The translations under genes were made by a program, and so were the position numbers. Below, piece by piece: positions 9,036-24,906 of a DNA stretch of 64,000 bases; position 1 is the first letter of the stretch, and each line of letters begins with the position of its first letter. The stretch spans positions 196,674 to 260,673 of the forward strand of contig CAYXYK010000003.1 in NCBI GenBank assembly GCA_964469335.1. The letters are read 5' to 3'. The notes beneath the pieces are model-generated. The model saw nothing but the letters and a program-made list of their open reading frames with translations. It searched no databases and was not told the origin of the DNA. The stretch is from an uncultured Candidatus Saccharibacteria bacterium. GTDB lineage: Bacteria; Patescibacteriota; Minisyncoccia; Phycocordibacterales; UBA6899.

Positions 9036-9039
9036 TGCT

Positions 9040-9738
9040 ATGGAAAAGATGAAGTTGGCAATAGTTGACGATCGAAAGGAAACAAGGAATGTCGTTGTTG
9101 ATGTTATTGCTAATGCACTCGACAATCTTGAGATGACTGGCAAATGGTCTGTTTTGGGGGTACCACCCCTGTCTACATTAAAGGAGTACCCAGAGTGGAT
9201 AATTAGGGAAAATGTAGGTATTTTAATCGTGGATGAAAGATTGGGAGAAGTTCCAAATGCCTCAGGCAAGATTGCGGATTACAAAGGGAGTGATTTGGTG
9301 GCATTGCTTCGAACACAGTATAAAGAAATGCCTATTTATGGTGTTACTGCGTATCATGCTGACGACTCCCTTCAAGAGCATTTCTCTCTTTTCGACGATG
9401 TTGTTGAAAGAAGTGACTTCGCAGCAAAAACAGTCCAGTATATTGGCAGATTCCTGAGAACATATCAAAATTTTTTTGAAGAAAACGAGAAAGAGCTCAC
9501 TGAGCTTTCAAAGATTTCAAAAAAAATTGCCATTGGTACTGCAAGCAAGTCTGAAAAAAATAGGGCAGAGGCGATACAGAGAAATCTCGAGATACCAGTT
9601 AGTACCATTTCTATTGCAAATAGAAAAGAATGGCTTGACGACTATGAAAAAATATTAAATATATTTACTGAAACGCAAAATAAAGCGAACAAAATTTTGG
9701 ACAAAAATAAAACAAAAATAAAAGATAAGAAAAAATGA
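9040..9738 (+). CDS. Receiver (REC) domain protein with a lysine-rich helical C-terminus
   Basis: KLAIVDDRKE (acidic pocket), ILIVDERLGE (candidate phospho-Asp) and YGVTAYH (conserved Thr). Start set at ATG 9040, 4 nt after the upstream stop; the ORF track gives 8971 as an alternative start. Confidence 0.55.
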   Translation: MEKMKLAIVDDRKETRNVVVDVIANALDNLEMTGKWSVLGVPPLSTLKEYPEWIIRENVGILIVDERLGEVPNASGKIADYKGSDLVALLRTQYKEMPIYGVTAYHADDSLQEHFSLFDDVVERSDFAAKTVQYIGRFLRTYQNFFEENEKELTELSKISKKIAIGTASKSEKNRAEAIQRNLEIPVSTISIANRKEWLDDYEKILNIFTETQNKANKILDKNKTKIKDKKK

Positions 9739-10385
9739 AATGGTCATTAATTCACAAAAAAGCAAACCCAGCACTTGAGAAGCATGGTTATCGCGATCAT
9801 CGAGTGAGGGAATTTTTAAGACAAGAAGGACTTTTGCGTTGTGCATATTGTGCTGTTCATGAGAATGCTGTCGGGGGAGTCCAGGCATTTCATATTGACC
9901 ACTACAAACCCAAGAAAAAGTTTCCTGCTTTAACGAATTCACTCTCCAATCTCTTTTATGTTTGCCCCATCTGCAATCGATTTAAGTCAGATGATTGGCC
10001 TGCAAATCCTCGCCCCACGTTTAGTAATAGCTCATATCCAAATCCGTCGAAGGTAGATTACAGCAAGCTGTTTGACGTTAGTTCTAGTGACTATGTGGTT
10101 AGTGGCCTGTTTGTGGCCTCAAAATATATAGTAGAAAAGCTATACCTTAATCGACCTCAGTTGATTTTGGAGCGGCGCTACTATTACCTAAACCAAAAAT
10201 TTGAATATCTGAGTTCGAATTATTTACCTATAATTAATGGTTTGAGTTCCATTGGAAATAAAGAGGCAATTGAATGTATAGTAAAACTTGCTGAAATCAG
10301 TGGTAAACTCAATGAACTACATTCTGCCTTAAAAACAATACCGTTATATGAAGTAGCAGATGTGACAAAGAGGAAAAAGAAATGA
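9735..10385 (+). CDS. HNH family endonuclease (candidate restriction endonuclease)
   Basis: CAYCAVHE ... HIDHYKPKKK ... YVCPICNRFK: a Cys4 zinc-finger HNH motif. The start overlaps the upstream stop (ATGA). Confidence 0.7.
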   Translation: MKWSLIHKKANPALEKHGYRDHRVREFLRQEGLLRCAYCAVHENAVGGVQAFHIDHYKPKKKFPALTNSLSNLFYVCPICNRFKSDDWPANPRPTFSNSSYPNPSKVDYSKLFDVSSSDYVVSGLFVASKYIVEKLYLNRPQLILERRYYYLNQKFEYLSSNYLPIINGLSSIGNKEAIECIVKLAEISGKLNELHSALKTIPLYEVADVTKRKKK

Positions 10386-12019
10386 ACTTAAAAAAGGAAA
10401 CAGGCTCATATTACACACCACATATCCTATCGGATTTCATGGTTTTTCACCTGTTTTCAGAATATAAATTTCCTAAAAATATAAATATTTTGGAGCCTAG
10501 CGCCGGAGACGGAGTATTCTTTGATTCGCTTTTTAATAATCAAGTTTTTAAAAATAAGTTTAAACTTCCCAAAAAAATAATCATTGATGCTGTTGAAATT
10601 GAAAAGGTAGCGATGCGTCATCTGGAAGTGAAAACGAGAGATTATATTTCAAAATCAAGTGAAATAAACTACACCCAGGAGGATTATTTGAAATACCAGC
10701 ATAAGAATAAAAAGAAGTTTGATTTGGTTTTGGGGAACCCACCTTACATAAAAAGTAGTCTTTTAAATAAAACTCAGATTGAGTTTTGTGAACAAATCCA
10801 TAAAACTGCCGGGCTTGATAATAAGAAAATTAAGAATATATGGACAAGTTTTTTGATTGCTGGCGTAGACTCTCTGAATAAAGACGGGGTACTCTGCTTC
10901 GTACTTCCTGCTGAGTTGTTGCAGGTCATATATGCTAAAGAACTAAGAAACTATCTACGAGATAATTTTCAGAGAATTGAGATTTTTACCTTCAACGAAC
11001 TTATTTTCCCAGATATTGATCAAGATGTTATCGTTCTTATTTGCGCAAAAAAGCAAAACGCGGGTGTTTCTTTCTATCACGTAGAAAAGCTTGATGATCT
11101 AAAAAAGCCAACATATGTTAAGGAAAATGATAACATCCATCGCCAAACTCTAGATAAATGGACTAATTACATTTTATTAGACAATGAACTTAAGTTTTTA
11201 GATTCTCTAAAAACTCGTTTCTCTCCAATCAAAGACTATTGTCGAGCGGAAGTTGGTATTGTTACTGCAGCAAATGATTATTTCATCGTTAATAAAGAAA
11301 CTATTGAGAAATATCACTTGCAAAATGTTGCAAAGCCAATTTTGCAGAAAAGTTCTTTGATGCCAGCAACAATTAACTTTACAAAACTTGACCAGAAGAG
11401 CATTTCTAAAAAAAACAAGCCTTCATACTTTCTTAGATTTGAAGATGTTAATAAAAAAGTATTTTCAAAAGAAATACAAGAGTATCTAAAGATTGGCGAA
11501 GGTCGAAAAATAAACGAACGATATAAATGCAAGCTTCGAAGCAATTGGTACCACGTACCCTCAGTTTGGATTTCTGAAGGGTTCTTTACGAAGCGCTCAA
11601 ATTTATTTCCTAGGATGGCAGTAAATGATGCTAAGTCATACTCTACTGATGCATTTTATAGAATTAAAATGAAGGAACAAAACAATGTTAAAGATCTTGT
11701 ATTTTCATTTTACAATACTTTGACGTTAATTTTTGCTGAGCTAGAGGGACGTTACTATGGTGGGGGAGTGCTCGAGCTAACTCCTAATGAGTATAAGAAT
11801 TTATCTATACCATATTGTAAAAATATAAAGGATTCTACATTTGCAAAGTTAGATAAAATGTTGAGATCTAAGACAGATATAAAAGAAGTTCTAAACTATA
11901 CAGACAAAATAATTTTAAAAGAGAATTACAAAATGTCTGATCAGGAAATTTCCAGGTTGTCTAAGATTTATTCAAAACTTGTTACTCGGAGATTAAAAAA
12001 TAGAAAACTTAGTTTTTAG
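10382..12019 (+). CDS. N6-adenine DNA methyltransferase, gamma class (Eco57I/TaqI-like), candidate Type II modification enzyme
   Basis: Motif I ILEPSAGDGVFF precedes motif IV LVLGNPPYIKS. Long C-terminal region is a likely target-recognition domain. Start overlaps the HNH stop (ATGA). Confidence 0.8.
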   Translation: MNLKKETGSYYTPHILSDFMVFHLFSEYKFPKNINILEPSAGDGVFFDSLFNNQVFKNKFKLPKKIIIDAVEIEKVAMRHLEVKTRDYISKSSEINYTQEDYLKYQHKNKKKFDLVLGNPPYIKSSLLNKTQIEFCEQIHKTAGLDNKKIKNIWTSFLIAGVDSLNKDGVLCFVLPAELLQVIYAKELRNYLRDNFQRIEIFTFNELIFPDIDQDVIVLICAKKQNAGVSFYHVEKLDDLKKPTYVKENDNIHRQTLDKWTNYILLDNELKFLDSLKTRFSPIKDYCRAEVGIVTAANDYFIVNKETIEKYHLQNVAKPILQKSSLMPATINFTKLDQKSISKKNKPSYFLRFEDVNKKVFSKEIQEYLKIGEGRKINERYKCKLRSNWYHVPSVWISEGFFTKRSNLFPRMAVNDAKSYSTDAFYRIKMKEQNNVKDLVFSFYNTLTLIFAELEGRYYGGGVLELTPNEYKNLSIPYCKNIKDSTFAKLDKMLRSKTDIKEVLNYTDKIILKENYKMSDQEISRLSKIYSKLVTRRLKNRKLSF

Positions 12020-12050
12020 TTAGATTCATGATAGATATCAAGTTATCAAA

Positions 12051-12620
12051 ATGAACATTGTTATATTGGGATGGGGCTCTCTATTGTGGGATAAAAATAT
12101 AAATTTTGATGAAACACATAAGGAATGGCTATTCGACGGCCCAAGTTTACCGTTAGAGTTTTCTCGTGTGTCAGAATCGAGAGGAGGAGCGCTAACGCTC
12201 GTAATTGATACTCAAAATGGAACCAAATGCCAAGTTGCGTATTCTTTGAGTATCAGGAAGACACTACGTGATGCCATAAATGACTTGACCAAAAGAGAGG
12301 GAACATCAACAAAACGAATAGGTTTTGTTGATGTGCTGTCTGGTAGTATTTCAGATGACGAGATTTCTCTTGGAATTAAATCTTGGGCGAAGGAACATGA
12401 TATTGAAGCAGTAGTATGGACAAATCTGCAGAGTAATTTTTGGGATAAAGTTGGAGAGAAATTTAGCGTCGAATCTGCGGCCACTTATCTTACTTCACTC
12501 GCAGAAGAGTCAAAAATAGAAGCTCTGAAATATATTAAATCGGCACCAGAATTTGTCCAAACACCACTGAGGAAGGAGTTCGAGATAAGGTTGGCCACAA
12601 ATGAGTTTGGAGAAAAGTGA
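12051..12620 (+). CDS. Hypothetical protein
   Basis: 189-aa ORF in the AT-rich island between the two R-M modules; no family recognised. Confidence 0.45.
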   Translation: MNIVILGWGSLLWDKNINFDETHKEWLFDGPSLPLEFSRVSESRGGALTLVIDTQNGTKCQVAYSLSIRKTLRDAINDLTKREGTSTKRIGFVDVLSGSISDDEISLGIKSWAKEHDIEAVVWTNLQSNFWDKVGEKFSVESAATYLTSLAEESKIEALKYIKSAPEFVQTPLRKEFEIRLATNEFGEK

Positions 12621-12659
12621 TGGGTTTGCAATCCCTAAATAGGGGAGTAGTCTGGAATT

Positions 12660-13067
12660 ATGACTGAGAAAAAAACGGACACATACGAGACGTTAGAATT
12701 CTGGCTAGGTGATGACTGGAAGAAAATTTCTGATGAACACAAGAGGATTTTAGCAGATAAGCTTGATTCACTTACAGATACAAATTTCGAAACGACAAAG
12801 GGTTTGTTTGAAAGAATACGCGACCGTCGTGAGATTCAGGGAGTGCTCATTTTGGGCGTAGTGCTCGGTATCCTAGGAAACTTAGTTGCTAATTATCTTG
12901 ATAGATATTTCCTCCGTTTTGGCTTTGCGTATTCGCTTGTGGTATCAGTAGGTTTTATTGTTGTGTATATTATTTTGAACCGAGCATTTGATAAAGGAAT
13001 CTCATCAATGGTGAGGAGCAATCCAACCCTACGTGCGATGATCGTCGAGAAAACCGAAAAGAAATAA
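12660..13067 (+). CDS. Hypothetical small membrane protein (2 predicted transmembrane helices)
   Basis: Hydrophobic segments VLILGVVLGILGNLVANYL and FAYSLVVSVGFIVVYIIL. Confidence 0.4.
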   Translation: MTEKKTDTYETLEFWLGDDWKKISDEHKRILADKLDSLTDTNFETTKGLFERIRDRREIQGVLILGVVLGILGNLVANYLDRYFLRFGFAYSLVVSVGFIVVYIILNRAFDKGISSMVRSNPTLRAMIVEKTEKK

Positions 13068-13199
13068 CAAAGGAAGTTCGGCACCAATTAATTGCAAAAA
13101 ATTTTTGGTAGATTTGTGCGAATTTCCCTCTAAATTCAACACATTCACTCAATCCCGAACAGACTAGCAACAAAGCCATCTTTGCCGTATTCTTATTGA

Positions 13200-15581
13200 A
13201 TGTCGCAGGAGGCATATTCTCGTGTTGTGATCGACCGAAAACTTCGTGAATCTGGTTGGGATATTGAGGATTCCCGTCAGGTTGTTTTTGAAGACCACGG
13301 AAACGCTGGTAGAGCTGATTATGTACTTAAGGATGGCTCTGGGAGGGCTATTGCACTCATTGAGGCTAAGAAACCAGAGATAGACCCCTACAGTGCAAAG
13401 AAACAGGCTTCTGATTACATAGAACTCCAGTATCCTCATGTGCGGTTTATTTATCTAGCTAACGACAAGCTAATTTACTTCTGGGATTTGGACGGAGGCG
13501 GAGACGCTCAAGTTGTCCCAGCGTTCTACTCCCAAGACGATTTGGTTCGTCGCCAGAGTGTTCGATCTCAAAATCTCGCTAAGAAACTAACAGAAGAGAC
13601 AATTCAAAAAGATTACTTCACCGATGTTGCTGACAGCGCAATCCTCCGTCCATACCAGCTCTCGGCATGGGAAACTATTGCTGATGGATATGATGCTGGG
13701 AAGCGTGCTTTCTTGCTGGAGATGGCTACGGGAACAGGAAAGACAATGCTCGCGTCTCTCATCATTTCTCGTTTCTTGCGCACAAACAACGCACAAAACG
13801 TTCTCTTTCTTGTAGACCGTAAATCACTCGCCATTCAAACCAAGAACACATTCGAGCGACTTCTTCGGGGAGTGTCGGCTGTCGGAACATACTGGGGCTC
13901 AAACAGGAAGAACCTCACGGGGTCAAACGTAGTGGTTGCCACAATTCAGTCTCTCATGCTCCACGGTGCACGTGATTTCTCGTCGGGATACTTCGACCTC
14001 ATCATCCACGACGAAGCACACCGAAGCATCTACTCCCCAGAGGCTCGTTCAGCAGTTGACCACTTCGTGGGAGTAACCAAGATTGGTCTGACTGCTACTC
14101 CTCGTGATTTCTTGAAGAATATTGACCTTGAACAGCTCAATGCAAAAGATCCTCGTAAACTAGAGCGCAGAGTACAGCGTGATACATATTCATATTTTGG
14201 TTGTGAACAAGGGGTGGCAACGTATCGCTACACGATACAAGACGGTGTGAGTGAGAAGTTTCTTGTTCCGCCAAAGTATCACAAGATGAAAACCTCGATT
14301 ACTCAACAGGCATTGTCTGACGAAGGTATAACGACTCTCGCTGACGTTGATCTCGAAGAGGGTGAAAGCATCAAAGTGAAAGACCTTGAAAAGAAGGTGC
14401 ATTTCCCTGAGCGGAATCGTCGCATGATGCAGGAATTTCTTGAACATGCAGTGCGCACACCAGACGGAGAGATCGGAAAGACACTTATCTTTGCGGTATC
14501 GCAAAATCACGCACTCGCACTAGAGAAAATACTGAATGAGCTGAAGCCCGAGTACGGAGGAAAGTTTGCAATGACCATCACTTCGCGAGTGCAGGGGGCT
14601 CATGATATTGCTAAGGATTTCTCGAAAGAGACAAGTAAGCTCCCACGAGTGGGAGTGACGGTAGAAATGCTCGCTACGGGCTTTGATTGCCCTGAGATAC
14701 TCAACATTGTTCTGGCTCGTCCAATATTTGATCCTGTGAGCTACCAGCAGATTAAAGGGCGCGGTACACGTCTGTGCCCAGAGATAAACAAAAAAGAATT
14801 TGTGGTGTTCGACTTCTGTGGTGTCGTTGAATATTTTGACGAGAAGTACGACTGGGAAGCACCAATCGTCCTGCCTCCCGTTGGTGGTGGAAATACAAAT
14901 GAGGGCGGAGCGGAGAGTGGAGGTGGAACAACATGCATAGGAATCGATGGAGAAGGAGGTGAGCCAGAAGAACGCATTTCACAAACACCAGATGTGGTGC
15001 TTTCTCGCGACATCATTACACTTCCTGAAGGTGATACGGTAGATAAAAACATGTATCGCGACGAGTGGACAAAGGCGGTGCAAGATTTCATGAGTAAGAG
15101 AGGCGAGTTGGTCGCATCCGCTCTTGAAGACGAAGATAAGGTAGAGGAGCTCATCGCAGAAATCAACGCCACACTACTCAATCAGCCCAAGCTTTACTTC
15201 AACGAGGAAAATCTCCAAATATCACACCGTATCGTCGCTGGCGTGCGAGAGTTCTTCCTTTCTGCTGTAGGAAAGCAATCGCTCCCAACCCGCGATGAAC
15301 AGCTCACTGGGTTCAAGCAGGCATTGGTCAACAAGTTTGCCCAATCAGATAAGCCAGAAGCCACCTTCAAGAGAGCCGTTATGGGGGAGTTCATTGCAGA
15401 TCAAGCTATTACAAACGACCACTTCCGAAAGTCTGTTATCGAGAAGCCAACACTCGACTTTTTGCGCTGGGACGAGTTTGAGCAAGCTTACTCGGTTACA
15501 GAGTGGCTCAATGTTTTCACAAAAGATGAGCTCACTGAATTGGTTTCGGATATTTCAAATGCACGCATTCTGAAGATTTAA
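13200..15581 (+). CDS. hsdR: Type I-like restriction enzyme R subunit (N-terminal PD-(D/E)xK nuclease plus SF2 DEAH helicase)
   Basis: N-terminal HsdR_N-like segment VVIDRKLRESGWDI...ADYVLKD...IALIEAKK. Helicase motif I LEMATGTGKT, motif II IIHDEAHRS, motif VI QIKGRGTR. At 793 aa it is short for a canonical HsdR. Confidence 0.75.
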   Translation: MSQEAYSRVVIDRKLRESGWDIEDSRQVVFEDHGNAGRADYVLKDGSGRAIALIEAKKPEIDPYSAKKQASDYIELQYPHVRFIYLANDKLIYFWDLDGGGDAQVVPAFYSQDDLVRRQSVRSQNLAKKLTEETIQKDYFTDVADSAILRPYQLSAWETIADGYDAGKRAFLLEMATGTGKTMLASLIISRFLRTNNAQNVLFLVDRKSLAIQTKNTFERLLRGVSAVGTYWGSNRKNLTGSNVVVATIQSLMLHGARDFSSGYFDLIIHDEAHRSIYSPEARSAVDHFVGVTKIGLTATPRDFLKNIDLEQLNAKDPRKLERRVQRDTYSYFGCEQGVATYRYTIQDGVSEKFLVPPKYHKMKTSITQQALSDEGITTLADVDLEEGESIKVKDLEKKVHFPERNRRMMQEFLEHAVRTPDGEIGKTLIFAVSQNHALALEKILNELKPEYGGKFAMTITSRVQGAHDIAKDFSKETSKLPRVGVTVEMLATGFDCPEILNIVLARPIFDPVSYQQIKGRGTRLCPEINKKEFVVFDFCGVVEYFDEKYDWEAPIVLPPVGGGNTNEGGAESGGGTTCIGIDGEGGEPEERISQTPDVVLSRDIITLPEGDTVDKNMYRDEWTKAVQDFMSKRGELVASALEDEDKVEELIAEINATLLNQPKLYFNEENLQISHRIVAGVREFFLSAVGKQSLPTRDEQLTGFKQALVNKFAQSDKPEATFKRAVMGEFIADQAITNDHFRKSVIEKPTLDFLRWDEFEQAYSVTEWLNVFTKDELTELVSDISNARILKI

Positions 15582-15582
15582 T

Positions 15583-17493
15583 ATGGACACCATCTCAACA
15601 TACAAAAGCAGAATAGACGGGCTGATGAATATTCTCTTTGGTGCAGGGGTTTCCAACCCTCAAACCATCATCGAGCAAATTAACTACTTGCTCTTTCTGC
15701 GCGCTCTCTCAGTCAAAGACGACGAGGCAGAGCTTCTTGGTATCGCCGATGAATCAGGCAAGATCTTCACGGGCAAGCTATCGAAGTACAAATGGTCAAA
15801 TCTCCTCGCACTGAACGCCGAGGATCTGTTCAAAATACTTGAGGAGTCTTATGGCGCGATTCAAAAAGAATCTGCGAATGCAACAGTAAAGCTCTTGTTC
15901 CGCAATGCCCATGTAAAGATTTTCGACAAGCCTACGCTCCGCAGGGTGCTTCACGAGATCGAGGAGTTTTCGAAGGAACTCGACACCATTGCCCACGAAG
16001 GCAACAAGGACGTGTTTGGGGATATGTATGAGTTCCTTCTCTCGAAGCTTTCCTCTGCGGGAACGAACGGGCAATTTCGCACCCCACGACACATAATCGA
16101 CTTCATGATCCGAGTACTCGACCCAAAGATTGGCGAGACGATACTTGATCCCGCTTGTGGCACGGCAGGTTTTCTTGTTGCCGCCTACCGCTATATTGCG
16201 GGCGAGTATACGAGCGACAAGATGAAGAAGGCAGGCAGTCCACGTGCAATGGACAAGCTCTCGTCCGAGGAAAAGAATTTTCTCTATAATCACATGTTCA
16301 CGGGCTTCGACAGTGACGAGGACATGATCAAGTTCGGAATGATGAACTTGCATTTGCACGGACTTACGAAATCTCATCTTGTTCGTCAAAATACGCTGAC
16401 TGATACAACTGGGTACAAGGCGAAGTTTGATGTCATTCTCGCCAACCCTCCTTTCAGTGGAAAGCTCGACGAGGAAAGCGTATCGGAAGACATTCGCATG
16501 GGGACAAAAGCGACTGAGCTTCTTTTCTTACGTTTTATGATAGACCACCTATCAAACAGAGGGAAAATGGCGGTGGTAGTGCCAGAAGGTGTGCTCTCAA
16601 GTTCTTCAAGGGCAAACACGAGGGTTCGTGAAATGTTGCTAGAAAATGGTCTATGGTGTGTCGTTTCACTTCCCAAAGGTATTTTTAATCCATATGCAGG
16701 TGTTAAAACCAACATTATATTTCTTGATAAGTTATTTGCCAGTAAGTCGAAAAATATTCTGTTTGTAACACTAGCAAATGATGGCTTTGAGCTTACTGCA
16801 CAGAGACGAGCTACGCAGAAAAATGATTTACCTGAAATATTAGAATTGTTATCAAGATGGAAGATGGACGAAAACACAGAAAGTACTCTCATAAAATCGG
16901 TCGAAAAATCAAAAATTATCGACAATGCCGACCACACTCTCTTGAAAGAGCAGTATGAAATTAACAGTAGGCACACAAAGGCAAAATACCCAATGATAAA
17001 GTTGGGAGAGCTTTGTGAAATTAAGACTGGAAAGAAGGATGTAAATGAAGGAAACCCAGATGGGGAATATCCTTTTTTTACTTGCGCCAAAGAGCCAACT
17101 CGAAGCGATAGTTATTCTTTCGACACAGAAGCCCTGCTTATTGCTGGCAACGGTGATGTTGGTGCTGTAAAGTATTATCTCGGGAAGTTTGAGGCATATC
17201 AAAGAACATATGTTTTGGTGAATTTTGAAAAAAGTGTTTTACCAATGTTCATTTATCACTATCTTGACGCGACGCTTAAACCCATTGTATCTGCACAAAA
17301 ATTAGGTAATACGATGCCATATATAAAAATGGGAATGCTATCAAATTTTGAGATATCTCTTCCGCCCCTAGAAATCCAGCAACAAATTGTCTCTGAAATT
17401 GAGAGTCATCAGCTTGCGGTAGATGAAGCCTACGAAGAAGCCGAAAGACAAAAGAGGAAAATCAAAGAGAGGATCGACAAGATTTGGGAGTAA
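15583..17493 (+). CDS. hsdM: Type I restriction-modification methyltransferase HsdM with a fused C-terminal single target-recognition domain (HsdS-like)
   Basis: N-terminal HsdM_N-like region. SAM motif ILDPACGTAGFL. Catalytic ILANPPFSG. C-terminal ~180 aa resemble an HsdS TRD plus conserved helix (LGELCEIKTGKKD ... LPPLEIQQQIVSEIE). Confidence 0.8.
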   Translation: MDTISTYKSRIDGLMNILFGAGVSNPQTIIEQINYLLFLRALSVKDDEAELLGIADESGKIFTGKLSKYKWSNLLALNAEDLFKILEESYGAIQKESANATVKLLFRNAHVKIFDKPTLRRVLHEIEEFSKELDTIAHEGNKDVFGDMYEFLLSKLSSAGTNGQFRTPRHIIDFMIRVLDPKIGETILDPACGTAGFLVAAYRYIAGEYTSDKMKKAGSPRAMDKLSSEEKNFLYNHMFTGFDSDEDMIKFGMMNLHLHGLTKSHLVRQNTLTDTTGYKAKFDVILANPPFSGKLDEESVSEDIRMGTKATELLFLRFMIDHLSNRGKMAVVVPEGVLSSSSRANTRVREMLLENGLWCVVSLPKGIFNPYAGVKTNIIFLDKLFASKSKNILFVTLANDGFELTAQRRATQKNDLPEILELLSRWKMDENTESTLIKSVEKSKIIDNADHTLLKEQYEINSRHTKAKYPMIKLGELCEIKTGKKDVNEGNPDGEYPFFTCAKEPTRSDSYSFDTEALLIAGNGDVGAVKYYLGKFEAYQRTYVLVNFEKSVLPMFIYHYLDATLKPIVSAQKLGNTMPYIKMGMLSNFEISLPPLEIQQQIVSEIESHQLAVDEAYEEAERQKRKIKERIDKIWE

Positions 17494-21261: not shown

Positions 21262-21750
21262 ATGAATGCGCTCAAAATGACCGTGATTGCCGCAGTAATC
21301 GCGGAGATAGAGTCCATGCGCTCGACTGCTCGCGAGGGTCGAGAAAACGCGATCGAGGAATCCCGCCACCACAAAGGTGCGATGGAGTCCCGCTACGATA
21401 CGTTCAAGGAAGAAGCTCAATATCTCATGGCAGCGCAAGACGTTCGCCTCGCCGAGTTCGAATCCATCCTCCTGACATTGCGACAGCTGTCTGAACGGCA
21501 TGTCGCTTCTTCGAGTGTCGTAGAGTCACTTTCGCTTGTCGAGCTTGAAGATGACAGCGAGGTGCGCTCCCATTTCCTCATTCTGCCAGTCGGCGGCGGG
21601 TTCAGTGTGGAGGTGAACGGACAAAAAATCACCACCATCAGCCTCAAGACCCCGCTCGCACAGGCAATGATCGGAAAGTCGGTCGACGATGATGTCGAAC
21701 TCGTGGTCGCTGGCAGGTCGAAAAACTACGCGATCGTTTCGGTCGCGTGA
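21262..21750 (+). CDS. GreA/GreB-family protein (transcription elongation factor homolog)
   Basis: C-terminal FKBP-like domain ISLKTPLAQAMIGKSVDDDVELVVAGRSKNYAIVSV resembles the GreA C-terminal domain. Confidence 0.6.
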   Translation: MNALKMTVIAAVIAEIESMRSTAREGRENAIEESRHHKGAMESRYDTFKEEAQYLMAAQDVRLAEFESILLTLRQLSERHVASSSVVESLSLVELEDDSEVRSHFLILPVGGGFSVEVNGQKITTISLKTPLAQAMIGKSVDDDVELVVAGRSKNYAIVSVA

Positions 21751-21766
21751 ACAGAAAGGACTTGAT

Positions 21767-22345
21767 ATGCATAGCAACTTACCGAGGCTCGTCGTACTCG
21801 AAGGGGTGGACGCAGTCGGCAAGACCACCATTGCGCGTATGCTCGAGTCGGAACTCGGCTACACGTATTTCTACACACCCCAAGACCCGTTTGCGGTTGT
21901 CCGTAAGCTGGTCGAAGAGATGCAGGACATCAATACGCGTTTCTTCTACTACCTTACTTCGGTCATCGGGGTGCAGCCACAACTCCGTGCCATGCTTGCC
22001 GCAGGGAAGAGGGTTGCGATTGATCGCTATATCTACTCGACCTTCGCGATGCATCGCGTTCTTGGTGCACAGGTGAAGACTGTCTCCATGAGGTCACTGC
22101 CAATCGCATGGCCTGATGTCGGCGTACTCCTGACTGCGCGTCCGGAAATCCGGATTGCGCGAATGGATGCGCGTGCGAAGCAACCGACGCACGACCTGCG
22201 CATCGAGCGTTTCGTCAAAGAGGCGGAAGAGGCGGTGCTCGTGTATCGCACCTACCGCGACCTGACCCCGATCGACACTAGCGACCTCTCTACAGAGGAA
22301 GTATTCCGAGAGGTGTTTAACCTGCTAAGGAGAGCAAGATGCTGA
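21767..22345 (+). CDS. Thymidylate-kinase-like P-loop nucleotide kinase (non-canonical)
   Basis: P-loop LVVLEGVDAVGKTT; DRY motif AIDRYIYS; LID-like RPEIRIARMDARAK. Lacks the canonical REPGGT segment. Start set at ATG 21767 inside ORF-track entry 21689..22345. Confidence 0.6.
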   Translation: MHSNLPRLVVLEGVDAVGKTTIARMLESELGYTYFYTPQDPFAVVRKLVEEMQDINTRFFYYLTSVIGVQPQLRAMLAAGKRVAIDRYIYSTFAMHRVLGAQVKTVSMRSLPIAWPDVGVLLTARPEIRIARMDARAKQPTHDLRIERFVKEAEEAVLVYRTYRDLTPIDTSDLSTEEVFREVFNLLRRARC

Positions 22346-23295
22346 AGATCTTCCGCCGTCTGGTGGACGAAGGGAACGTCGAGTACTCACGACTGACCAA
22401 TACGCGGCTCAAGCTGCACACTCCGTGCCAGTGGACGTGCCACTTCTGCCACATGGAAGGGAATCACGATTCTCTCTCTATTCGCGACAGTGAGGAACTC
22501 ACTCGTGTGCTTCTTCGCTTTCGCGACGAGATGGGTTTTACCGATGTGCACTACACCGGCGGTGAGCCATCAATCCATCCTCAGATTCTGGAGTACGTGC
22601 GCATTGCGCGCGCACTCGGATTCACCGTGAAGATGACCACCAATGCACAGGTGAAGGTCGAGCGATATCGCGCAATGGTCGATGCCGGACTCTCCGAGTT
22701 CAACGTCAGCATCCACACCATGCGTGGGAGCGCACTCGCCGCACTGATGGCCCCGCCTCGCACGAGGGCTTGGGGAGAACAAGCAATCGGGAAACAGCTC
22801 GCAATGGTTGCGGCGCTCAAATCGATCGCCGCACTCAAGGTCAACACGGTGGCAGGCCCTGATGTCTCCGCGCTGGAAGAGATTGCCGCTTTCGTCCGCC
22901 GAGAAGGGGTCGCTTGGCGTGTCATGGATGAGCTCGACCACCCCGAGGTCTCATTCGCCACAATCAACGAAGTTGCCGCAAAGATGGGGGCAGTTCCTAC
23001 CATGGCACACATCATCCGCGGCAGTTCCAGTTGTGGTATCACCATGACCTGCCCAGATGGGTATTCGTTCAAGGTGAAGATGATTCGCCCTTTCCGACTT
23101 CGTGGGATGTGCGACGGCTGCCCGGTGGACACCGCTGGAGCATGCAAGGAGTATGCTTACGGTCCGCGTCTTGAGGGGAGTCCCGACGGCATCGTCGTTC
23201 GCTCGTGCCTGTACCGCAGTGACACGGGCTTCATCCTGCCTGTCGCTGAGTACTTCGACCATGCATTCGCGCAGTCGCTCCGTTCTGAGTTGTAG
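22339..23295 (+). CDS. Radical SAM enzyme, MoaA/viperin-like fold
   Basis: CQWTCHFC (Cx3Cx2C); GGEPSIHP; TTNAQ; NVSIHT. Extra C-terminal Cys cluster CDGCPVDTAGAC...SC. ATG overlaps the kinase stop (ATGCTGA). Confidence 0.7.
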   Translation: MLKIFRRLVDEGNVEYSRLTNTRLKLHTPCQWTCHFCHMEGNHDSLSIRDSEELTRVLLRFRDEMGFTDVHYTGGEPSIHPQILEYVRIARALGFTVKMTTNAQVKVERYRAMVDAGLSEFNVSIHTMRGSALAALMAPPRTRAWGEQAIGKQLAMVAALKSIAALKVNTVAGPDVSALEEIAAFVRREGVAWRVMDELDHPEVSFATINEVAAKMGAVPTMAHIIRGSSSCGITMTCPDGYSFKVKMIRPFRLRGMCDGCPVDTAGACKEYAYGPRLEGSPDGIVVRSCLYRSDTGFILPVAEYFDHAFAQSLRSEL

Positions 23296-23310
23296 TTCCG
23301 TTCTTTCCCA

Positions 23311-23352
23311 TAGGGAGGTTGCACTTGCAACCTCCCTATCTTTCTATACTAT
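23311..23352 (+). terminator. Intrinsic terminator after the radical SAM gene
   Basis: tagggaggttgcac-ttgcaacctcccta perfect hairpin followed by a T-rich tract. Confidence 0.55.
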
Positions 23353-23376
23353 TGAGGAAAACTAAGCATAAAACTC

Positions 23377-23907
23377 ATGGAAATCGAGATTAGAGCAAAA
23401 CTAAAAACTCCCAAGGCAATCATTGCGCGGCTCAAAAAAGATCGCGCGGTTAAATTTGTCGGCGAAAAAGTTGAACGCGATCTGTATTTCAAGCATGCGA
23501 CAGACCGCAAGCGTCAACTCGTGTTGCGCATCCGCAGAACAAAAAATGGCGACATGCTCACTTTCAAGGCAAAGAGCAGTGGAGATGATACTGCTTGGCC
23601 TGATGTCGATTTACCCCTTGCGGACGCTCCTGCCCTCGAGGGAATCCTTCGTGGGGCGAACTATGAAGAAGTGGTAAGAATTTCCAAAACTCGTTCGACT
23701 TACAAATCAGGACATTTCGAAATCAATATCGACCACATCAAGGAACTAGGCTGGTATATCGAGATAGAAGGAAGGGGTACACAGAAACAGCGTCCGCAAA
23801 TAGAGCGGGCACTTGAGCAGATGTTTCTCAGTTTTGGAATACAGGAGTCAGACATTGTACGGCAAGGCTACGTTCCTCTCGCAATTGCCAAACAAAATAA
23901 ATCCTAG
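23377..23907 (+). CDS. CYTH-domain protein (class IV adenylate cyclase / triphosphate tunnel metalloenzyme family)
   Basis: N-terminal MEIEIRAKL (ExExK-type motif), LVLRIRR, C-terminal YIEIEGRG; 176 aa. Confidence 0.7.
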   Translation: MEIEIRAKLKTPKAIIARLKKDRAVKFVGEKVERDLYFKHATDRKRQLVLRIRRTKNGDMLTFKAKSSGDDTAWPDVDLPLADAPALEGILRGANYEEVVRISKTRSTYKSGHFEINIDHIKELGWYIEIEGRGTQKQRPQIERALEQMFLSFGIQESDIVRQGYVPLAIAKQNKS

Positions 23908-23914
23908 TTCGAAC

Positions 23915-24385
23915 ATGGATAAGATTTATGTCACAGAAAAAGGGCGCTTGTTGCTCGTGGGAAAAAGAGATGAGTTAGTTGCAGAGTTGAGAGCATCACA
24001 GTTTGACAAAGGCAAAGCAGCAGCAGGTGACTCAAATTCTTGGCACGACAATGCCGAGTTTGAAATGCATGCAACAAAAGAGATGATGCTTGCTAAGCAG
24101 GTTTCGGAGATCATGCAGCAACTCGAACATGCGATTCTTGTTGAGTCGCCTGTCTCCGATCATACTCTTTCAATAGGGCATGTAGCAGTGCTTCATTCCG
24201 AAGAAGGAGGTCTTGTTGAATATGTTGTAGCAGGTTTTGGAGAAACAGATCTTCGTGCAACACCAAAACGTCTCAGCTACGATTCGCCTATGCTCCGTGA
24301 ATTTTTTGGTAAATCTATCGATGCCGCAGCACATGTTTTAGTGAAAGGGGAGCCGAAGAAATTTACACTTAAGGAAATCAAATAA
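23915..24385 (+). CDS. GreA/GreB-family protein, Rnk-like (lacks long coiled-coil)
   Basis: GDSNSWHDNAEFEMHATKE resembles the GreA GDLSENAEY segment; C-terminal FKBP-like domain. Start set at ATG 23915. Confidence 0.6.
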   Translation: MDKIYVTEKGRLLLVGKRDELVAELRASQFDKGKAAAGDSNSWHDNAEFEMHATKEMMLAKQVSEIMQQLEHAILVESPVSDHTLSIGHVAVLHSEEGGLVEYVVAGFGETDLRATPKRLSYDSPMLREFFGKSIDAAAHVLVKGEPKKFTLKEIK

Positions 24386-24453
24386 TCCTACTAGAGTTGT
24401 CAGGAACTTTTTCTGAGCAATCCTATACAAAATTTTTTTGGTAAAATAACGTC

Positions 24454-24906
24454 ATGAAAAAATTACATTTTTCCGTTCACGTCAACGCAAGCAAGGAGAA
24501 GGTTTGGGATATCATGCTCAGCGATGCGACCTATCGCGAGTGGACATCGGTATTCAACCCAGGAGGTTCATATTACAAAGGAGACTGGAGCGAGGGGAGC
24601 AAGATGCTATTCCTTGGCCCTGATGATAAGGGTGCAATCGGAGGGATGGTGAGCATGATAGACAAGAACATCCCGAATGAATTCCTGTCGATCAAGCACG
24701 TCGGAGAGCTAAAGGGCGACGTGGAAGACACGACCAGTCCTGAGGTGCTCAAATGGTCCGGAGCATTCGAGAACTACACGTTCAAAGAGGTGGATGGCGG
24801 TACCGAGCTCTCGGTCGACCTCAACGTCGTTGAAGAATTTGAAGACTACATGACCGACACCTGGCCCCCAGCCCTCGAGAAACTCAAAGGAATGTGCGAA
24901 CGATAG
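24454..24906 (+). CDS. SRPBCC / AHSA1-like domain protein
   Basis: Sequence profile typical of the activator-of-Hsp90-ATPase / polyketide-cyclase SRPBCC fold (KVWDIMLSDATYREW...). Confidence 0.55.
   Translation: MKKLHFSVHVNASKEKVWDIMLSDATYREWTSVFNPGGSYYKGDWSEGSKMLFLGPDDKGAIGGMVSMIDKNIPNEFLSIKHVGELKGDVEDTTSPEVLKWSGAFENYTFKEVDGGTELSVDLNVVEEFEDYMTDTWPPALEKLKGMCER

Follow-up and report, generated by a model that had tools for sequence, protein, structure and literature searches.

Several described systems combine a radical SAM (rSAM) enzyme with a nucleotide or nucleoside kinase. In the pVip systems, the viperin is accompanied by the viperin-associated kinase VakA, as RSAD2 is by CMPK2 in eukaryotes, and AbmM and AbmG are the corresponding proteins of albomycin. 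ThmABC of Photorhabdus (4'-thiothymidine) consists of an rSAM enzyme, a nucleoside kinase resembling AbmG and an NTPase that confers self-resistance (PMC12691670). MoaA, the GTP 3',8-cyclase, is a further nucleotide-directed rSAM enzyme, found in the context of MoaC/B/D/E. At the level of transcription, Gre-family and DksA-type factors have the secondary channel of RNA polymerase (RNAP) in common; GreA, GreB and the RNAP-bound inhibitor Gfh1 are the described proteins closest to two of the factors considered here, and DksA with ppGpp is a functional counterpart. The CYTH enzymes, such as CyaB, the SaTTM triphosphatase and ThTPase, form the last group with which the present locus has to be compared.

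Organization of the cluster

The window, the whole analysed stretch of 64,000 nucleotides from an uncultured CPR-type bacterium, carries five co-oriented genes at 21262-24385. They lie on the + strand and, as the original prediction had it, a GreA-like gene stands upstream of the kinase, whose stop overlaps the rSAM start codon (ATGCTGA).

21262..21750, +, GreL1, specialised Gre-family factor of 162 aa (PF01272, GreA model alignment, AF2/Foldseek)
21767..22345, +, Tmk-family P-loop nucleotide kinase of 192 aa (PF02223)
22339..23295, +, twitch-type radical SAM enzyme of 318 aa (PF04055; CQWTCHFC, GGEP)
23310..23349, +, intrinsic-terminator-like hairpin with weak T-tail, 13-bp stem, between the rSAM and CYTH genes
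23377..23907, +, CYTH / triphosphate-tunnel metalloenzyme of 176 aa (PF01928, TIGR00318)
23915..24385, +, GreL2, second specialised Gre-family factor of 156 aa (GreA/GreB model alignments)

The kinase open reading frame spans 21689-22345, and its real start is the ATG at 21767, 16 nt past the GreL1 stop and preceded by an AAAGGA box. Downstream of the rSAM gene, a strong terminator had been predicted; a perfect 13-bp stem with 7 GC pairs does stand at 23310-23339, 15 nt past the stop codon, but its T-tail in the window is weak (CTTTCTAT). Although their sequences are unrelated, 12 of 14 orthologous loci have a canonical hairpin with a T-run at the same position. GreL1, kinase and rSAM thereby form one transcription unit and CYTH with GreL2 a second, and for a CYTH gene that consistently has its own transcription unit, an antidote or processing role fits as well as a step in the proposed order of phosphorylation, rearrangement and trimming. 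The earlier boundary at 24906 was set too far, since it takes in an SRPBCC/AHSA1 gene (24454-24906) beyond GreL2 that has no match in the 88 module loci. Since the five-gene arrangement itself returns in different phyla amid unrelated flanks, it is far from what chance would produce. A restriction-modification (R-M) island lies 3.7 kb upstream of the cluster within the window.

The enzymes

The rSAM enzyme combines CX3CX2C-H-x-E-G, HxTGGEP and TxN motifs with a C-terminal C258xxC261x7C269xE..Y.R...C290 element, whose four cysteines are invariant in 29 orthologues and 99-100% conserved among 155 family members, which bears out the extra C-terminal cluster noted before. Its nearest folds are MoaA, viperin, BlsE and AbmM, all of them nucleotide or nucleoside enzymes, and AbmM is also its best sequence match in the PDB (2e-17). 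Neither of the two obvious assignments holds. The 'viperin-type' label must be dropped, as the enzyme scores 49.6 bits against an NCBIfam cutoff of 180 and viperins lack the auxiliary four-cysteine motif; moreover, pVip systems have no CYTH or Gre-like factors, whereas this rSAM enzyme is obligately linked to one or both. It likewise falls outside MoaA (80 bits against 325), from which it differs in its cysteine spacing (CX2CX7C...C with four cysteines, rather than CX2CX13C), in H71 in place of R71, and in its occurrence in CPR genomes and mobile elements, with no moaC/B/D/E in any flank of the module loci. The triphosphate-binding residues of MoaA are nevertheless kept. The family is uncurated, and a word-index search found 49 clusters of close orthologues.

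The kinase is Tmk-like and non-canonical, as had been proposed: it carries the P-loop GVDAVGKTT and a DRY motif and reaches 44.1 bits with PF02223, but an orthodox dTMP kinase is rejected by TIGR00041 (38.5 bits, cutoff 83.25). Among PADLOC models it matches VakA (1.2e-13) and, in the candidate system PDC-M51, PDC-M51B (2.5e-23; 2.7e-24 for the Acinetobacter and 1e-29 for the Ignavibacteriota homologue); no neighbour matched any PDC-M51A model, and PADLOC 2.0.0 holds no specific models for the rSAM, CYTH or Gre-like proteins.

The CYTH assignment stands, with 62 bits for PF01928 and 85.9 for TIGR00318 (cutoff 57.95); the nearest solved relatives are SaTTM (7ns8, 5.5e-13) and a class IV adenylate cyclase (3n0y). 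Among the CYTH partners of rSAM genes (82 proteins), E2, E4, R51, R53, R106, D119, E129 and E131 never vary, and K64 is conserved in 91%. All acidic and basic tunnel residues are kept; the active site is intact and the catalytic set complete. Other CYTH/TTM proteins differ from this enzyme, whose dedicated subfamily is found almost obligately beside a single rSAM family.

The Gre-like factors

GreL1 scores 30.6 bits with PF01272 (cutoff 26.9) and aligns with GreA models over its full length (E 1e-10). In its AF2 model (pLDDT 92.9), helices at 3-36 and 42-78 flank a loop at 37-41 and are followed by a beta C-domain; Foldseek returns Gfh1, GreA and GreB at probability 1.0, with TM-scores of 0.66-0.69 against RNAP-bound Gfh1, and GreL1 has the Gre/Gfh1 fold, with full coiled coil and C-terminal domain. 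GreL2, previously called 'Rnk-like', proved from its real start at 23915 to be GreA-sized with a full coiled coil; it aligns over its full length with GreA/GreB models (E 2e-9 to 1e-5), while its PF01272 score (18.8 bits) is under the cutoff.

Both factors fall far under the GreA/GreB equivalog cutoffs, and their tips are distinctive. That of GreL1, H37-x-G-A-M-E-S-R-Y-D-T-F-K-E-E-A-Q-Y54, is invariant among 30 sequences and distinct (GAMESRYDTFKEEAQY) from those of GreA, GreB and Gfh1; that of GreL2 reads S-N-S-W-H-D-N-A-E-F (family consensus SSETWHDN) and aligns with D41..E44 of E. coli GreA. D41 and E44 of GreA are matched by D46 and E50 of GreL1 and by the D and E of WHDNAEF in GreL2. Unlike GreA, GreB and Gfh1, these families are rare, always adjoin or are fused to a radical SAM enzyme, and lie on mobile elements. 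Word-index searches of 5.8 billion proteins found 134 clusters of GreL1 and 9 of GreL2, the latter occurring in the window and in L002, L003, L009, L013-15, L018, L080, L081 and L084.

Linkage and genomic context

A CYTH gene stands beside the rSAM gene in 84 of 88 loci. These range from CPR bacteria to Streptomyces, Nocardia and Streptococcus, whose homologues share 26-32% identity, and the linkage is near-obligate across phyla. The linkage of GreL1 to rSAM is obligate: in a metagenome scan seeded with GreL1 and counted only where at least 2.5 kb was available on both sides (n=17), rSAM was present in all 17 loci, the kinase in 14 and CYTH in 13, and the 20 loci without rSAM were all truncated. 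In addition, three independent proteins fuse the rSAM enzyme to a Gre-like factor, two with full GreL1 (P0102, P0127) and one with full GreL2 (P0119), the last having an ADK-like kinase and CYTH as its neighbours. Across CPR classes the module is conserved amid differing flanks, and the predicted kinase-rSAM neighbourhood, with CYTH and Gre-like genes, is conserved in many unrelated genomes, the kinase gene staying beside rSAM across loci. One complete genome, CP064994.1 (L014), also bears the module. CYTH is missing from several Gre-associated loci (L019, L020, L024, L081, L089, L097-L101), and in most lineages the rSAM-CYTH pair occurs without any Gre-like gene.

Kinase-rSAM-GreL1 sets were also found in mobile and conflict contexts, recorded locus by locus rather than as enrichment over background: on a phage contig with small terminase on one side and portal on the other, on an Acinetobacter plasmid adjoining PIN and AAA genes, and in islands by CRISPR-Cas, Eleos and R-M systems. 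In Edwardsiella, prophage genes lie on one side of the set and type III CRISPR-Cas/Card1 on the other; the Aeromonas set lies between LeoABC-type GTPases, Cas2 and HsdR, and the Providencia set belongs to an integrative element that also carries ArdA and an integrase.

Possible functions

The reading that we favour, tentatively and with slightly less than even confidence, is that of a conflict module, spread by horizontal transfer and most likely directed against viruses, which makes a modified nucleotide that acts at RNA polymerase. We infer its chemistry and role as follows. Like CMPK2 and VakA in viperin systems, the kinase would phosphorylate a nucleoside monophosphate, or an analogue of one, up to the di- or triphosphate level. 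The rSAM enzyme, through 5'-deoxyadenosyl radical chemistry and its four-cysteine auxiliary cluster, would alter the sugar or base of that NTP or NDP, and RNA polymerases would misuse the resulting analogue, terminating the chain or stalling. CYTH, from its separate transcription unit, would act on the analogue triphosphate, most likely by hydrolysis that limits self-poisoning or matures the product, in parallel to the action of the NTPase ThmC on 4'-thiothymidine; cyclisation is the alternative. The Gre-like factors would enter the secondary channel of the host RNAP, where their conserved acidic tips most likely allow it to cut out an analogue at the 3' end and resume transcription. Phage single-subunit polymerases would lack this immunity by proofreading. 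Alternatively, the Gre-like factors may present the analogue to RNAP.

Several points tell against a conflict module. The Gre-less Streptococcus version, in which rSAM-CYTH stands with two Rgg regulators, an AlaRS-like protein and two ATP-grasp ligases, resembles a quorum-regulated biosynthetic cluster and suggests that metabolite production may be the primary role of the family. The 14-residue invariant GreL1 tip exceeds the constraint needed for simple Mg2+ coordination, and an enzyme would not usually be fused to the factor that provides immunity against it. Finally, in most CPR loci no neighbour is recognisable as a defence gene, and PADLOC 2.0.0 does not contain the complete system.

The Streptococcus genes also speak for a nucleoside-analogue antibiotic or toxin cluster of ThmABC or albomycin type with built-in self-resistance, which we consider unlikely. 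The kinase and rSAM enzyme would build an analogue exported against competitors or, in CPR episymbionts, against the host cell. Within the producer, CYTH would detoxify the triphosphate, and RNAP would be shielded by the Gre-like factors. ThmABC, an experimentally proven minimal cluster, has the same three-part logic as kinase-rSAM-CYTH, and the AbmM match, the separate transcription of CYTH, and the HAD and PRTase genes near the Streptomyces loci agree with it. Exporter and tailoring genes, however, are not conserved in Gre-associated loci, which are located in defence islands, phage and plasmids, and the kinase resembles the defence-associated VakA and PDC-M51B.

A second messenger is a decidedly improbable alternative, in which rSAM and CYTH, the latter as a cyclase comparable to MoaC after MoaA, would make a modified, possibly cyclic nucleotide read out by Gre-like factors on RNAP, reprogramming or shutting down transcription much as ppGpp does with DksA. 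The shared secondary channel, the likeness of GreL1 to Gfh1, and a tip as invariant as expected of a ligand or active-site contact are consistent with this, as is one fusion gene (L095) beside a Crp/cNMP-binding regulator, a response regulator and NUDIX; such a cNMP-binding neighbour, however, occurs in that locus only. The CYTH enzyme exceeds the class IV adenylate cyclase cutoff, but TIGR00318 is a name rather than a tested function, SaTTM was deposited as a triphosphate tunnel metalloenzyme and not as a cyclase, and several Gre-associated loci have no CYTH gene at all. That the rSAM enzyme is instead a maturase, modifying a residue such as Tyr, Arg or Asp in the invariant tip to give a new secondary-channel effector with kinase and CYTH as accessories, is very improbable indeed, given that rSAM-CYTH pairs stand without a Gre-like gene in most lineages, and given the retained triphosphate-binding residues, top fold matches that are NTP and nucleoside enzymes, and the recruitment of nucleotide kinases from two different families. 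Accidental synteny of housekeeping genes (MoaA for molybdenum cofactor, Tmk, GreA and a general CYTH), suggested by JGI auto-annotation of some homologues as 'cyclic pyranopterin phosphate synthase' or 'GreA/GreB family factor', is already effectively refuted by the wide margins by which all curated equivalog cutoffs are missed, the moa-free flanks, the tiny families, their patchy spread across phyla and mobile elements, and the fusions.

The original prediction is partly supported as a whole: a nucleotide-directed rSAM pathway tied to transcription via Gre-like factors, possibly with a defensive role, is well backed by the linkage, fusions, fold and conserved residues. For a partnership of rSAM, kinase, CYTH and Gre-like proteins no published description or curated family was found, and the module therefore probably marks a novel use of a modified nucleotide, either to attack transcription or to protect it.

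Organization of the gene cluster

The five-gene cluster of the original prediction is real and needs small corrections only, the genes being tightly packed at 21262-24385 of the window, all on the + strand.

Features of the window cluster
21262-21750, + strand: GreL1, a Gre-like factor of 162 aa; PF01272 (GreA/GreB C-terminal domain) above the Pfam cutoff
21767-22345, + strand: Tmk-like P-loop nucleotide kinase; start ATG at 21767, 16 nt past the GreL1 stop
from 22339, + strand: MoaA/viperin-like radical SAM enzyme (rSAM); start overlaps the kinase stop as ATGCTGA
23310-23339: hairpin with a perfect 13-bp stem, 3' of the rSAM stop
23377-23907, + strand: CYTH, a triphosphate-tunnel enzyme above the Pfam and TIGR00318 cutoffs
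23915-24385, + strand: GreL2, a second full-length Gre-like protein, 156 aa
24454-24906: SRPBCC/AHSA1-family gene

The span first proposed, 21262-24906, is sound for the five genes but not at its end, which takes in the unlinked SRPBCC gene. This gene matched in 0 of 88 homologous loci (the 80 best from a scan of GTDB species genomes, which yielded 403 rSAM relatives, plus 8 metagenomic loci) and is rejected as a member of the module, that is, GreL1-kinase-rSAM together with CYTH-GreL2. No second Gre or Tmk gene turned up when the 64-kb window was scanned, and Rfam and tRNA scans of it found nothing.

Family assignment of the radical SAM enzyme

Viperin structures contain one radical SAM [4Fe-4S] site without an auxiliary cluster, and prokaryotic viperins (pVip), which make 3'-deoxy-3',4'-didehydro-NTP and protect against phage, often adjoin a nucleotide kinase. 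The rSAM shares this kinase neighbour, whose stop overlaps its own start, and had been described as viperin-type. That assignment is ruled out by the curated cutoff and by a four-Cys C-terminal motif: the enzyme scores 49.6 bits against a cutoff of 180 with NCBIfam NF038283 (viperin_w_prok), and C258, C261, C269 and C290 are 99-100% conserved among 155 family members. The PADLOC pVip models, at 51.5 and 49.4 bits, match the generic radical SAM core only.

R23, K167 and R194 of the rSAM align (HMM alignment to 1tv7) with the triphosphate/GTP contacts R17, K163 and R192 of MoaA; R23 and R194 are kept in 87-89% of the wider family, much of the remainder being truncated sequences, and K167 is invariant in 29 close orthologues. 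The triphosphate-binding positions are shared with MoaA; model scores, Cys spacing and Moco-gene context are not. Scores with the MoaA models TIGR02668 and TIGR02666 are 80.3 and 67.4 bits (cutoffs 325 and 284), and distant homologues (L040, L037, L020) reach 66-97 bits. The MoaA auxiliary cluster is held by three Cys in a CX2CX13C arrangement; the extra Cys cluster predicted for the rSAM by likeness to it does exist as a conserved motif, but with four Cys, spaced CX2CX7C and with the fourth 21 residues on. Neither moaC nor other Moco genes occur in the flanks of the window cluster, nor do they in the annotated loci, whose flanks span 5-10 kb. The 155 members share the signature CX3CX2C-H-x-E-G, HxTGGEP, TxN, S124, N169, R194, S230, K247 and C258xxC261x7C269xE271xxY274GxR277...C290. 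The rSAM is of the twitch type, its auxiliary motif having four Cys, and the family stays below the cutoff of every NCBIfam model.

One branch of the family is apparently circularly permuted (L097:6019-7017, L099:6022-7017, L101:7010-7996, L128:5995-7068, L142, L159 and L173). Its N-terminus lies at the GGEP-equivalent 'ALEPLLW', the TTNG, K and CxxCx5CxE..Y.R...C motifs are retained, and the C-terminal 'LRL..CNFNCx9C' resembles a displaced SAM-cluster loop with the non-canonical spacing CX3CX9C. Other members carry an N-terminal SorC-type sugar-binding domain (P0061) or C-terminal TPR repeats (P0126), and the rSAM profile also matches larger proteins (900-1300 aa) in which three or four radical SAM domains stand in tandem.

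Kinase and CYTH enzyme

The kinase is predicted to be a non-canonical Tmk-like enzyme, as had been proposed. The P-loop GVDAVGKTT and a DRY motif are present, the sequence lacks the canonical NMP-site motif, and the score is above the family-level cutoff (PF02223, 44.1 bits against 27) and below that of the dTMP-kinase equivalog (TIGR00041, 38.5 against 83.25). It is the sole module protein recognised by PADLOC 2.0.0, as PDC-M51B/VakA-like (VakA, viperin-associated kinase). For the candidate system PDC-M51, only this B model is matched; no A-model match occurs in the window cluster or related loci.

The CYTH assignment likewise stands, at 62 bits with PF01928 (gathering score 23.2) and with the Arg, Lys and Glu residues of the tunnel conserved. 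Across 82 partner CYTH proteins, E2, E4, R51, R53, R106, D119, E129 and E131 do not vary, whilst K64 is kept in 91%; in the N-terminal ExExK-type motif, K is replaced by R in CPR members. The enzyme also exceeds the cutoff of the class IV adenylate cyclase model TIGR00318 (CyaB; 85.9 bits against 57.95), and its closest solved relative by sequence, Saci_0718 (SaTTM), was deposited as a triphosphate tunnel metalloenzyme, not a cyclase.

Gre-like factors

GreL1 is above the PF01272 cutoff (30.6 bits against 26.9) and can be aligned with GreA models from end to end, yet reaches only 41.6 bits there against a cutoff of 167. GreL2 falls below the PF01272 cutoff (18.8 bits), and scores 37.4 bits at the Gre equivalog level; both factors thus miss the GreA/GreB equivalog cutoffs of 139-188. 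Among 5.8 billion proteins searched, 134 clusters of GreL1 and 9 of GreL2 were found, and because they are so few, the two are not housekeeping GreA.

The AF2 model of GreL1 (pLDDT 92.9) has two long helices (3-36 and 42-78), the first of 35 residues, joined by a loop of five residues and followed by a beta-rich C-domain. Its best Foldseek matches are Gfh1, GreA and GreB (probability 1.0), with a TM of 0.66-0.69 to RNAP-bound Gfh1, plus the HelD N-terminal domain. The model is that of a GreA/GreB-family fold, with a coiled coil and a C-terminal globular domain, and such a fold docks into the RNAP secondary channel. Rnk is a short Gre-like protein (~136 aa) whose coiled coil is truncated, and Foldseek gives GreL1 only a weak match to it (3bmb; E 9e-4, 101 columns). 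GreL2 had been labelled GreA/Rnk-like; at 156 aa, and with full-length alignments to GreA/GreB models and to its own homologues, it is not Rnk-like.

The GreL1 tip, H37-x-G-A-M-E-S-R-Y-D-T-F-K-E-E-A-Q-Y54, is invariant or nearly so in 30 homologues from CPR to Edwardsiella that are just 28-54% identical overall. In E. coli GreA, the acidic tip residues D41 and E44 are needed for transcript cleavage; D46 and E50 of GreL1 are plausible counterparts, given a one-residue insertion. GreL2 has a different conserved tip, SSETWHDNxxFE, which aligns more simply with GDLKENAEY, and the E/D of 'SETWHDNAEF' suggest a tip acidic pair, again with a one-residue insertion. Both tips may act within the RNAP channel.

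Conservation, fusions and transcription units

Close rSAM orthologues form 49 clusters at 42-72% identity, in Paceibacterota, Yonathbacteria, Moraniibacteriota, Magasanikbacteria, Uhrbacteria and Saccharibacteria. Their CPR loci keep the order GreL1-kinase-rSAM-CYTH(-GreL2) amid unrelated flanks. CYTH directly adjoins the rSAM in 84 of the 88 loci, including those of Streptomyces, Nocardia, Nocardiopsis and Streptococcus mitis-group homologues of only 26-32% identity. The kinase-rSAM pair, whose conservation had been singled out for checking, is kept as neighbours in CPR, Ignavibacteriota, Acinetobacter, phage and metagenome loci. Reciprocally, when metagenomes were searched with GreL1, the rSAM was present in all 17 loci having at least 2.5 kb on both sides, the kinase in 14 and CYTH in 13; a further 20 GreL1-seeded loci without rSAM were all truncated contigs.

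In addition, three Gre fusions were found among representative rSAM-family proteins, two with a complete GreL1 (P0102 and P0127) and one with a complete GreL2 (P0119). P0102 is followed downstream by a Tmk-like kinase, and P0119 is flanked by CYTH and an overlapping ADK-type kinase. Because the four functions travel together though gene order, strand, kinase family and fusion state vary, their co-occurrence is strong evidence for a single functional system.

The neighbourhood of an rSAM::GreL2 fusion (L095:199-8131) is rich in nucleotide metabolism: besides an ADK-like kinase and CYTH, it holds two regulators (a response regulator and a Crp/cNMP-binding one), NUDIX, ASCH and several further small P-loop kinases. 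At L008:5208-7086, 3-5 kb from the module, a second CYTH adjoins an NTP_transf_2 nucleotidyltransferase, and the other strand there encodes a nucleoside diphosphate kinase.

Of 14 orthologous loci (window 23296-23376; L001, L003, L007-L010, L012-L016, L103 and L110), 12 have in their rSAM-CYTH spacer a GC-rich hairpin with a T-run behind it. The hairpins are conserved in position and unrelated in sequence, and an AT-rich stretch with -10-like boxes follows. In the large metagenomic (permuted) subtype, CYTH lies on the other strand and converges on the rest of the set. Because of these spacer terminators and this convergent orientation, CYTH is consistently predicted to be transcribed apart from GreL1-kinase-rSAM, which would suit an antidote or a processing enzyme better than a stoichiometric step in a pathway.

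Genomic context

In the window, a low-GC restriction-modification (R-M) island (6837-17493) lies 3.7 kb upstream of the module.

Genes of the R-M island
6837-9035: type II REase
9735-10385: PtuB-like HNH
10382-12019: type II MTase
13200-15581: type I HsdR
15583-17493: fused HsdM/HsdS

GC falls to 31-40% at 7-13 kb of the window, against about 52% elsewhere, which suggests that the island was acquired horizontally. In Edwardsiella tarda, the rSAM-GreL1 pair has prophage tail genes on one side and a type III CRISPR-Cas/Card1 locus on the other; this pair has no match in E. coli genomes. The Aeromonas dhakensis pair lies between Cas2, LeoABC-type GTPases and HsdR. Providencia stuartii carries a copy on an integrase/ArdA island, and Acinetobacter plasmid pNDM1_010055 (L101) carries kinase-rSAM-GreL1 with PIN and AAA ATPase genes further upstream. 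The phage contig IMG/VR UViG_3300017593_001448 (L089:694-9727) has kinase-rSAM-GreL1 without CYTH, flanked by a small terminase/exonuclease gene and by one for the portal (PHROG portal, 2.7e-67). From these varied island, plasmid and phage contexts, the module is accessory and mobile, and its versions include canonical and circularly permuted rSAM and phage-borne, plasmid-borne and fused forms. Just upstream of the plasmid set, L101:5640-6221 encodes a small protein that resembles an NrdG-type activase and bears the annotation 4Fe-4S single-cluster domain protein.

Most CPR loci have no recognisable defence neighbours. A PADLOC scan of 141 neighbouring ORFs, run without a background control and not claimed as statistical enrichment, placed clear defence genes in only a few loci: LeoABC in Aeromonas, CRISPR in Edwardsiella, and R-M and MADS in some.

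In the Streptococcus mitis group (L029, L031-L038; for example L037:1421-11119 of Streptococcus sp. KHUD_011), a Gre-less rSAM-CYTH pair follows two Rgg regulators and precedes an AlaRS-like protein and two ATP-grasp ligases, beside a relaxase; from its gene content this version resembles a quorum-regulated cluster for peptidyl-nucleoside biosynthesis, carried by a mobile element. Many Streptomyces CYTH-rSAM copies adjoin a WhiJ-type HTH_31 regulator and an anti-sigma-like HATPase_c_2 gene near MobC (L058:2348-4718, L057:4525-5019), and in others genes for a HAD hydrolase and a phosphoribosyltransferase lie close by; these flanks contain no clear pathway. The clearest conflict context is that of the Gre-associated branch, which includes the window.

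Proposed function

We tentatively favour, at somewhat less than an even chance, a module that couples a nucleotide analogue made by radical SAM chemistry to RNAP through the Gre-like factors. The kinase would provide a phosphorylated nucleotide, the rSAM would alter it by radical chemistry with the assistance of the auxiliary cluster, and CYTH would hydrolyse, or possibly cyclise, the triphosphate of the product. The Gre-like factors would link this product to RNAP, most plausibly by letting host RNAP excise a 3'-terminal analogue, as immunity; alternatively, they may present the analogue to RNAP.

The nearest experimental precedents are pVip with its kinases and thmABC of Photorhabdus. In the latter, a radical SAM enzyme, an AbmG-like kinase and an NTPase yield 4'-thiothymidine, and the NTPase alone gives self-resistance (PMC12691670). 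In architecture the module is analogous, with CYTH in the place of the NTPase.

Among the other explanations, a nucleoside-antibiotic cluster is unlikely, a second messenger read out by the Gre-like factors is distinctly improbable, and still more so is the rSAM as a maturase of the Gre tip. Housekeeping genes (MoaA, Tmk and GreA) can be dismissed, as curated cutoffs are missed, GreL1 and GreL2 are rare and the module is mobile.

A more ambitious form of the RNAP-coupled reading, which we consider rather doubtful, is an unrecognised conflict or regulatory class in which a nucleotide made by the rSAM and a dedicated Gre-family factor act jointly at the RNAP active site. Either the Gre-like factor would be a proofreading immunity, excising the self-made chain terminator from host transcripts, or the invariant tip would bind and present the product, locking RNAP as a radical-chemistry counterpart of ppGpp/DksA.

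Novelty and implications

Full-text searches of PMC and bioRxiv, a scope that leaves out most subscription papers, returned no paper linking radical SAM enzymes with CYTH or Gre factors and nothing relevant on PDC-M51, 8WM2 or viperin together with GreA. The logic of kinase plus radical SAM enzyme has precedents; new are a CYTH partner that is near-obligate, Gre-like partners that are obligate or fused, and a permuted rSAM branch. That Gre coupling is a categorically new mechanism is possible, if on the unlikely side.

The closest characterised enzymes yield Moco precursors, ddhCTP, 4'-thionucleosides and blasticidin intermediates, and the module may be a source of new nucleoside-analogue chemistry. 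The work also defines a large uncurated radical SAM family, with 403 matches in GTDB species genomes and a circularly permuted branch, and the proposal is directly testable with the versions from Edwardsiella tarda, Aeromonas dhakensis, Providencia stuartii, the Acinetobacter plasmid, the Streptococcus mitis group and Streptomyces. If the proposal is true, bacteria including minimal CPR lineages, and some phages, would carry an undescribed nucleotide-analogue system wired to RNAP via specialised Gre factors. The viperin paradigm, in which a kinase and a radical SAM enzyme give an antiviral nucleotide, would gain a dedicated triphosphate-tunnel enzyme and a secondary-channel factor, which could account for a producer's tolerance of the chain terminator it makes, and Gre-family paralogues would gain a role in immunity or chemical warfare.
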